DNA of 64,000 bases from Mycobacterium phage prophiFSAT01-1 (BK061308.1), one strand, 5' to 3'; shown: positions 55,340-55,412, counted from the first letter of the stretch. Translations and numbers: made by a program. The notes: a model not told the origin generated them from the letters alone.

Positions 55340-55412
55340 GTTTGGTAGACGGCTCTACCGTAGCACATTGGTAGAGCTGTCTACTACTCTATTGGTAGAA
55401 TGAACTACCAAG
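55340..55412. promoter_or_regulatory. divergent promoter region with three TTGGTAGA-N4-6-(T)CTACC palindromic sites
   Basis: GGTAGACGGCTCTACC, GGTAGAGCTGTCTACT and GGTAGAATGAACTACC lie between the divergently transcribed genes 55319(-) and 55413(+). Confidence 0.5.

Follow-up and report, generated by a model that had tools for sequence, protein, structure and literature searches.

Operator-like palindromes in a MabR-type mycobacterial prophage: a candidate helix-turn-helix binder and a possible relation to the ESAS repeats of Cluster K phages

The closest described counterparts of the element analyzed here are Cluster K mycobacteriophages' extended start-associated sequences (ESAS), which Pope et al. 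(2011) defined as imperfect 17-bp inverted repeats arranged in pairs; in TM4 and Pixie the individual repeat reads TGTTGA-N4-TCAACA, and a DNA-binding protein was suggested for them without being named (PMC3203893). According to a 2024 study of Adephagia, each ESAS comprises a SigA-like promoter plus an inverted repeat, and its regulator, likely to be other than the immunity repressor, is of unclear identity; genes 36-38 of Adephagia and their ZoeJ homologues are expressed in lysogens, and some ESAS-driven genes are silent in lysogens (PMC11373665). As late as 2025, a survey covering 188 Cluster K genomes described the role of ESAS as unverified. The element in question is an array of three palindromes at positions 55340-55412 of a 64,000-nucleotide stretch of Mycobacterium phage prophiFSAT01-1 (BK061308.1; the whole stretch is referred to as the window), for which an original prediction, made from the sequence alone, had proposed an operator-like function. 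We consider it likely that these palindromes are operators of a 122-aa helix-turn-helix (HTH) protein and belong to an autoregulated repressor circuit over accessory genes near attR.

The array is real and highly non-random. Its three palindromes (S1, S2 and S3; Table 1) share the form TGGTAGA-N4-TCTACCA with one mismatch each and were found where they had been predicted; their centres are 26 and 24 bp apart, in accord with the predicted spacing of ~25 bp between divergent starts, and they occupy the 93-bp gap from the ATG of a minus-strand 66-aa gene (55319) to the ATG of a DUF2786 gene (55413). The six-nucleotide spacer originally read into the third site is unnecessary, as N4 suffices (GGTAGA-ATGA-ACTACC, one mismatch). 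When the 16-mer GGTAGA-N4-TCTACC is allowed no more than one mismatch among its 12 specified bases, the window contains seven matches against 0.04 expected, and none of 100 shuffled sequences reached seven; the 18-mer at up to three mismatches gives eight against 1.17 expected. The possibility, raised along with the original prediction, that the motif merely occurs at the rate of chance does not hold in this window scan. Its recurrence 4 kb away is equally genuine, with the perfect site S5 and the one-mismatch site S6; the sites listed at first all stand, and the perfect site S4 and the intragenic site S7 had been overlooked. The six intergenic sites, distributed over three or four gaps, are all positioned at gene starts.

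The sites are conserved among related prophages. Positions 53000-60000 are 94.6% identical to Mycobacterium phage McProf, a Mycobacterium chelonae prophage and founder of cluster MabR, and 79-88% identical to three Mycobacterium abscessus MabR prophages; by this similarity the window is assigned to a McProf-like (cluster MabR) M. abscessus/chelonae prophage. In McProf, FSIL01-1 and FVLQ01-1 the half-sites are unchanged at the same sites, and the N4 spacers and inter-site linkers vary (the spacer of S1 is CCAA in McProf and FSIL01-1 versus CGGC in the window); FSQJ01-1, the most distant relative, has TAGTAGA-N4-TCTACTA at the same places. The palindrome arms in four related prophages are kept as sequence and not just as complementarity.

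A search on DNA alone connects the motif with one protein family. Public genomes and viral contigs were scanned for two GTAGA-N4-TCTAC sites 5-35 bp apart, yielding 220 loci, ~70 of which encode a homologue of the HTH protein no more than 900 bp from the sites; since ~1,800 genes were sampled and the family is rare, the chance expectation is far below one. Removal of duplicates left 57 non-redundant loci, and in every one of them the sites lie upstream of, and face, the HTH operon, with a centre-to-centre spacing of 23-24 bp in 49. Alignment of the 57 loci gives the consensus TGTAGACa..TCTACa, 6-7 variable nucleotides, TGTAGAgT..TCTACATG, in which the distal site carries a -35-like TAGACA and the proximal site a -10 TAGAGT (TANNNT); it can be read as TAGACA, 17 nt, TAGAGT, 7 nt and a putatively leaderless ATG. 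Neither the distal C, nor the proximal G/C-T, nor the ATG had been imposed by the search pattern. The gene at the consensus ATG is either the HTH gene itself or variable cargo followed by the HTH gene, the cargo including a small GNAT-like protein and several unknowns. Apart from the HTH protein, the genes around the motif are unrelated from locus to locus, with no family shared among the divergent and downstream neighbours; this protein alone is a constant partner of the motif.

The reverse test started from the protein. Twelve homologues were fetched by protein sequence alone and their DNA was then inspected; palindromes of GTAGA, GTTGA or GTATA type were found upstream of the HTH operon in 9-11 of the twelve. 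Clear GTAGA sites are present at L228, L229, L231 and L236 (directly upstream in three, ~530 bp upstream in L231), GTTGA sites at L234, L243 and L244, a GTATA variant with a leaderless ATG at L237, and degenerate or differently spaced versions at L230, L235 and L238; L242 has no recognisable palindrome. The type of half-site is mirrored in the recognition helix, which reads …DRM(T/A)(V/L)R… almost without exception at loci of GTAGA type and …(D/N)RLT(V/I/L)R… at all six of GTTGA type (TM4, Adephagia, Larva, L234, L243 and L244). Among the pattern-matching family representatives, DRM occurs 87 times and DRL or NRL eight times. These patterns fit a direct reading of base 3 of the half-site by the Met/Leu residue (Met113 in the window protein), with few independent covariation events behind them because the GTTGA examples are all Cluster K-like. 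A residue tracking the outer half-site base (T, G or A before GTAGA) was also sought; it gave no consistent pattern and was dropped.

The family member of the window is homologous to McProf gp89, and its gene lies 850 bp downstream of the array, in the rightward operon that the array is predicted to drive, which corrects the earlier impression that no HTH repressor is to be found nearby. It matches the full-length phrog_2311 profile (E 2e-21), as do all 33 aligned members. An exhaustive profile search retrieved 143 family representatives at E<=1e-3 among 1.84 billion cluster representatives, and a word-indexed search for relatives of the HTH protein returned four clusters; the gp89 family is rare. 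Its members, mostly ~110-130 aa and matched over most of the profile, end in …G(V/I)DR(M/L)T(V/L)R(K/R)W.GK(R), a pattern that the window protein fits; R112 and R116 show no variation, and D111, G120 and K121 almost none. An AlphaFold2 model built on 33 sequences is all-helical (pLDDT 94.7), with helices at 101-108 and 112-118, and supersedes an earlier model of this type from five sequences that was poor at the HTH (pLDDT 66.7). The protein alone has no Pfam match at E 0.01 and no HTH_3/XRE match, the family as a whole matches HTH_23 only weakly, and a protein-pattern scan of species-representative genomes for the HTH gene gave no confirmed relative. S2 and S3, upstream of the DUF2786-HTH operon, form a palindrome pair of the kind seen at the other loci of the family, and the 122-aa protein is most likely the binder of the palindromes.

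The same family leads to the ESAS repeats. TM4 gp38 (E 4e-36) and Adephagia gp36 (E 3e-26) are gp89-family members, each with an ESAS pair directly upstream and each located just after the sliding-clamp gene, as in MabR prophages. The GTTGA-type pairs, judged by their sequence, are the Cluster K ESAS repeats, and the gp89 family may be the ESAS binder, a connection that we draw here from the association with the HTH family. Both kinds of palindrome pair occur several times per genome, in gaps between genes of non-structural regions, and both are missing from the immunity repressor region (for the MabR group, in McProf); ESAS contain SigA-like -35/-10 hexamers, and comparable ones can be read at the window sites. 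A single base per half-site separates the TM4/Pixie repeat TGTTGA-N4-TCAACA from the family core TGTAGA-N4-TCTACA. In both phage groups, a gp89-family gene follows the sliding clamp with the motif pair upstream. Pairs or triples of sites, comparable to the paired imperfect inverted repeats of 15-17 bp by which ESAS are recognized, occur at 55343-55410 and at McProf 34939/34963. There are differences as well. The half-site of the window is TGGTAGA, with GTAGA as the family core, and matches neither TGTTGA (K2/K3) nor the K1 variant; the start-associated sequence (SAS) GGGATAGGAGCCC, which lies at the ribosome-binding site, has no match in the window at up to two mismatches; TM4 spaces its sites 29-37 bp apart, compared with 24-26 bp for the window and 23-24 bp for the GTAGA group at large; and the window has three sites serving two divergent promoters.

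On balance, we lean towards a broader proposal, in which gp89/phrog_2311 is the missing ESAS regulator, carried on a portable, self-contained cassette of actinobacterial phages, prophages and other mobile elements and forming a second repressor circuit with Met/Leu-tuned specificity. In such a cassette the palindromes would carry the -35 and -10 elements, the first gene would be leaderless, the cargo interchangeable and the regulator gene last. The circuit, independent of immunity, would set the expression of lysogenic accessory or defence cargo, with Met directing the protein to GTAGA and Leu to GTTGA.

Every intergenic site in the window overlaps a predicted -35, -10 or start point, which, together with the conservation of the palindromes, upholds the earlier view of an operator-like array in a divergent promoter region. 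The promoters were assigned throughout by reading the DNA for consensus elements (Table 1), with predicted starts at about 55408, 55350, 57198-57200, 59243 and 59370. The rightward promoter P88, predicted to serve the DUF2786, HTH and membrane-protein genes, would use hexamers in S2 and S3, and the geometry of S3 is that of the proximal sites across the HTH family loci. The leftward promoter P87, predicted to drive the 66-aa gene and the ADP-ribosylglycohydrolase (ARH) operon, has a -35-like TAGACA on the minus strand (55383 to 55378) in S2 and S1 over its start, and its extended -10 is of the same design as that of P92; by analogy with the family consensus, S2 would provide the -35 for both divergent promoters. 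P92 is predicted to serve the 61-aa gene (59004-59189), with the AAA-ATPase gene (57304-58881) as a probable further target. Hexamers at SigA-like spacing (17-18 bp) can be read at P88, P94, the 57198 promoter and the family consensus, and the window genes under the sites are predicted to be leaderless or nearly so, or have ordinary Shine-Dalgarno sequences.

From these data we infer that the HTH protein binds the sites, as a dimer, and represses rather than activates. One dimer would sit on each 18-bp site. S2 would give -35-like hexamers to two back-to-back promoters, S3 would hold the rightward extended -10, and S1 would cover the start region of the leftward promoter of the 66-aa gene and ARH operon; three bound dimers would cover P87 and P88, with the central S2 serving both. 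Because the sites double as promoter parts, the bound protein would occlude RNA polymerase, limiting its own synthesis (negative autoregulation) and holding down the divergent operon and three further promoters (at S4, 57198; S5, 59263; and S6, 59355). Negative autoregulation with co-repression is favoured because sites over -10 and +1 normally repress. The outcome would be a small regulon of accessory genes, located between the lysis cassette and attR and distinct from the immunity repressor/Cro switch, which occupies the opposite end of the prophage. In kind, the mechanism would be a textbook one, with a dimeric HTH regulator acting on promoter-overlapping palindromes; what is new is the family-motif link, the promoter-in-palindrome leaderless cassette across actinobacterial mobile elements, and the bridge to ESAS.

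The alternative that survives best, although we regard it as unlikely, retains the same HTH protein and makes it mainly an activator, either a positive autoregulator or a mixed activator/repressor of the C-protein kind, so that the regulon would come on after the protein has accumulated. Sites over the -35 only (S5 at P92, S2 at both divergent promoters) would be in the class II activator position, the weak -35-like hexamers (TAGAGC and TAGACC in the window, TAGACA in the family) may denote factor-dependent promoters, several genes of the region are expressed in McProf lysogens, and the layout resembles that of C.PvuII, in which one box mediates activation and the other repression (PMC2175313). 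However, S3, S4, S6 and 49 family loci cover the -10 and start, where a bound protein normally blocks polymerase, and in Adephagia some of the ESAS-driven genes are silent in lysogens though the HTH homologue is expressed, which fits repression (PMC11373665).

Much further down in probability is the notion that the repeats are promoter elements only, recognized by the RNA polymerase of the host, perhaps carrying an alternative sigma factor, and have no dedicated binder. TANNNT and TAGAC hexamers do occur at promoter spacing within the repeats, and ESAS have been described as containing SigA-like promoters (PMC11373665). A promoter has no need of symmetry, yet conservation is equally strong in the 3' TCTACCA halves and the 5' halves; neither strand of S1 or S5 has a TANNNT inside the palindrome (the predicted P87 -10 overlaps the S1 edge), S7 has been kept at a position where a promoter would not be expected, and the near-obligate linkage to one HTH family would be left unexplained.

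Slightly less credible again is binding by a host transcription factor or by one of the small neighbouring proteins (55119-55319, 59004-59189 and 59396-59593), which the original prediction had put forward as candidates. The small proteins adjoin the sites, and the site itself presumably bears a loose likeness to GntR/HutC-type palindromes. Against the small proteins, none of the three has a DNA-binding signature, and they are absent from the other motif loci, whose neighbours are diverse, and are not conserved partners of the motif; against a host factor, the motif and the HTH gene occur together on mobile elements of many genera. Least probable of all is binding by the immunity repressor (the McProf gp3 homologue, left of the window) or Cro as part of the main lysis-lysogeny switch: the immunity genes do lie outside the window, as the original suggestion of a binder beyond its ends allowed, and phage repressors often own extra operators far off, but McProf 1-5000, including the repressor-cro intergenic region (2593-2882), has no site at up to two mismatches, the sites are ~55 kb from the immunity locus and near attR, the motif travels across Actinobacteria with the gp89-family gene and not with a repressor/integrase module, and the Cluster K authors excluded the immunity repressor for the homologous motif (PMC11373665).

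Several points count against the proposal that the palindromes are operators of the HTH protein. The link between protein and palindromes rests on association and covariation, and the linkage of motif and gene could in part reflect shared descent of a mobile cassette instead of direct binding. The covariation of Met/Leu with A/T comes from few independent lineages, and the MabR promoters were all assigned by consensus. The outer-base variants (TGG, TAG and CTG before TAGA) track no obvious residue; FSQJ01-1 has TAGTAGA near its HTH gene, yet TGGTAGA at the intragenic site; and the DRL-type homologue P0052 shows no site. The published McProf RNA-seq text, which reports 16 lysogen-expressed genes, is silent on gp89 and its targets.

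Other known systems share parts of this design. Like the C proteins, exemplified by C.PvuII (PMC2175313), the HTH protein would be a small autoregulator with two adjacent palindromic operators over its own promoter, a leaderless transcript, and a regulator gene co-transcribed with cargo on a mobile element. Unlike C proteins, which are of XRE type and ~80 aa, it has 122 aa, a C-terminal HTH and no XRE/HTH_3 match; the C-box, GACT-N3-AGTC-N4-GACT-N3-AGTC, differs from the window sites in sequence and spacing; no restriction-modification genes adjoin the array; and activation is hypothetical here. Literature matches to TGTAGAC/GTCTACA in C.PvuII papers were discarded as a coincidence of box plus spacer. 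The array also recalls lambdoid OR1-OR3, with three imperfect palindromes of ~17-18 bp, ~24 bp apart, between divergent promoters, one of which drives the regulator's own gene. It differs in lying off the immunity locus, in the unrelated protein, in a regulator gene that is second in its operon, in targets that are accessory and not lytic genes, and in the scattering of the same site as single cassettes. Cluster A stoperators are asymmetric 13-bp sites within transcribed regions that are bound by the immunity repressor in an orientation-dependent manner. The window sites resemble them in that many copies of a short repressor site occur across a mycobacteriophage genome, and differ in being symmetric and located on promoters.

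MabR prophages occur in clinical strains of M. abscessus and M. chelonae, and McProf increases the intrinsic resistance to aminoglycosides (PMC8191103). For effects of this kind, suspicion falls first on the genes located between the lysis cassette and attR, and the present analysis gives a predicted controller, with exact sites, for five promoters in this block. Among the Cluster K phages are TM4 and two therapeutic ones, ZoeJ and Fionnbharth. The role and regulator of ESAS, described in 2011, are still open in the literature of 2024-2025, and a named candidate with a specificity rule makes the question answerable. The cassette is compact, with ~45 bp of promoter plus operator, a 120-aa regulator and at least two natural specificities, and could serve as a source of orthogonal switches in mycobacteria and Streptomyces.

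The window contains a near-whole prophage. It begins at approximately McProf 3741, and its last 45 bases (63956-64000) equal McProf 1-45, the core repeat of the attachment site that marks attR; the integrase, immunity repressor, cro and excise genes are outside the window because of these two boundaries. The operator array lies in the block from the lysis cassette to attR, whose expression in lysogeny has been called "most likely" in the MabR papers; the two papers do not mention operators, palindromes or promoters. The coordinates of the sites, genes and predicted promoters are given in Table 1.

Table 1. Palindromic sites, genes and predicted promoter elements in the 64,000-nucleotide window.
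Feature	Position	Strand or type	Remarks
Putative operator S1	55343..55360	palindrome	TGGTAGACGGCTCTACCG, 1 mismatch; over predicted P87 start region
Putative operator S2	55369..55386	palindrome	TGGTAGAGCTGTCTACTA, 1 mismatch; central site
Putative operator S3	55393..55410	palindrome	TGGTAGAATGAACTACCA, 1 mismatch
Putative operator S4	57198..57215	palindrome	TGGTAGAGCAGTCTACCA, perfect
Putative operator S5	59263..59280	palindrome	TGGTAGACAGGTCTACCA, perfect
Putative operator S6	59355..59372	palindrome	TAGTAGAGTCATCTACCA, 1 mismatch
Intragenic site S7	26968..26985	palindrome	TGGTAGCGATGTCTACCA, 1 mismatch; in minor-capsid/ADP-ribosyltransferase fusion gene
Predicted P88 (rightward), -35-like and extended -10	55372-55377 (-35-like)	+	TAGAGC in S2; 18 nt; extended -10 TGGTAGAAT in S3
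Predicted P88, -10 hexamer and start	55396-55401 (-10)	+	start ~55408; DUF2786 ATG 55413
Predicted P87 (leftward), extended -10	55365 to 55357	-	TGCTACGGT, at S1 edge
Predicted S4 promoter	57235-57230 (-35)	-	TTGATA, 17 nt upstream of extended -10 TGGTAGACT; then 8 nt, ATG
Hairpin terminator	57240-57276		precedes -35 of S4 promoter
Predicted P92 (leftward)	59277 to 59272 (-35-like); 59258 to 59250 (extended -10)	-	TAGACC in S5; extended -10 TGCTACACT
Predicted P94 (rightward)	59335-59340 (-35-like); 59358-59363 (-10)	+	TAGACC; 17-nt spacer; TAGAGT in S6
ARH gene (McProf gp86 homologue)	54116..55126	-	phrog_22100 and phrog_6572; predicted P87 target
66-aa gene (McProf gp87 homologue)	55119..55319	-	Cys/His-rich; first in leftward operon; overlaps ARH gene start
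DUF2786/DUF7168 gene (McProf gp88 homologue)	55413..56219	+	PF10979, E 2.5e-11; phrog_421
122-aa HTH protein gene (McProf gp89 homologue)	56277..56645	+	phrog_2311; C-terminal HTH ending GAQRAARVDRMTVRRWRGKR
62-aa gene	57010..57198	-	ATG overlaps S4; predicted leaderless or nearly so
Gene, predicted P94 target	59396-59593	+	GAGGAGG ribosome-binding site

The DUF2786 gene is the first of the rightward operon and the HTH gene the second. The former is not present in FVLQ01-1 and FSQJ01-1, where the HTH gene directly follows the operator region, and for this reason the constant unit comprises the ARH operon, the operators and the HTH gene, with the DUF2786 gene apparently being variable cargo. 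At L238 (655-1848), a DUF2786/DUF7168 gene is directly followed by the gene of a gp89-family HTH protein, a ~40% identical relative, with palindromes upstream; the DUF2786 protein may function together with the regulator. The window is without 15 bp that McProf and FSIL01-1 hold (55410-55425 versus L001 6562-6592), including the DUF2786 Shine-Dalgarno sequence, owing to which the gene would be nearly leaderless here; its new ATG at 55413 gives a predicted leader of ~4-5 nt. The 66-aa protein of the leftward operon has no Pfam, PHROG or PADLOC match.

Sites of this type also move with their genes. McProf has an additional site pair (34939/34963) that appears to drive the small reverse gene gp56, with TCTACCATG at the gp56 start, and gp56 is weakly expressed in lysogens according to the McProf RNA-seq data. 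McProf 34753-34997, comprising gp56, the two operator sites and the leaderless-type start, is replaced by ~38 bp in the window (30230-30269). The 57198 cassette (57010-57198) is present in the window and FVLQ01-1 and not in McProf; its 62-aa product is 89% identical to prophiFVLQ01-1 gp91, with the same operator overlap there. Since the gp56 and 57198 cassettes come and go between genomes, operator-plus-gene cassettes behave as indels. The 74 bp between S5 and S6 (59281-59354) are almost invariant in four prophages, contain the predicted P94 -35 and may hold further elements; a 39-aa open reading frame annotated in McProf (gp93), which spans both the S5 and S6 operators, is probably spurious.

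A structured RNA was considered for the operator region and rejected: its strong fold (z -6.4) is a trivial product of the repeated palindromes, the arms are conserved in sequence, the sites are mostly upstream of predicted starts, and no curated Rfam family reaches threshold there. At 57177-57280, a stretch overlapping the hairpin terminator and S4, Rfam gives a sub-threshold match to the small RNA CcsR1 (26 bits versus a gathering score of 65), most likely by chance.

Outside the family, Microbacterium chromosomes (L017, L027, L028 and L053) carry tandem CGTAGA-N4-TCTACG pairs without a gp89-family gene nearby. These pairs probably belong to another regulator, which may be a different protein or a very remote homologue. 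Microbacterium Cluster EF phages have ESAS centred on GTAGAG (PMC7302621), and a tblastn search from two family members brought up no homologue in a Microbacterium phage.

The AAA-ATPase downstream of S5 and P92 gives matches to nSTAND3/nSTAND5-like NTPases and, in PADLOC, contains a stretch weakly resembling IetA; it could be a defence-type STAND NTPase, though it matches no known system. PADLOC found nothing beyond this stretch in ten neighbouring proteins, and the regulon therefore cannot be named as a known defence system.

The intragenic site S7 lies in a 24-nt block, CAACACTGGTAGnGATGTCTACCAAG, that is invariant in five MabR genomes, synonymous positions included, and it is perfect in the most divergent MabR genome (78% local identity) through a Ser-to-Arg codon change. 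Selection on the DNA itself is therefore suggested, and S7 is possibly functional. From the annotation of relatives, the gp54-like gene at ~25800-29400 encodes a minor capsid protein fused to an ADP-ribosyltransferase domain; the prophage also encodes the ADP-ribosylglycohydrolase under predicted control of the operator array, and the virion ADP-ribosyltransferase and the prophage ADP-ribosylglycohydrolase could form a writer/eraser pair, one acting in infection and the other in lysogeny.

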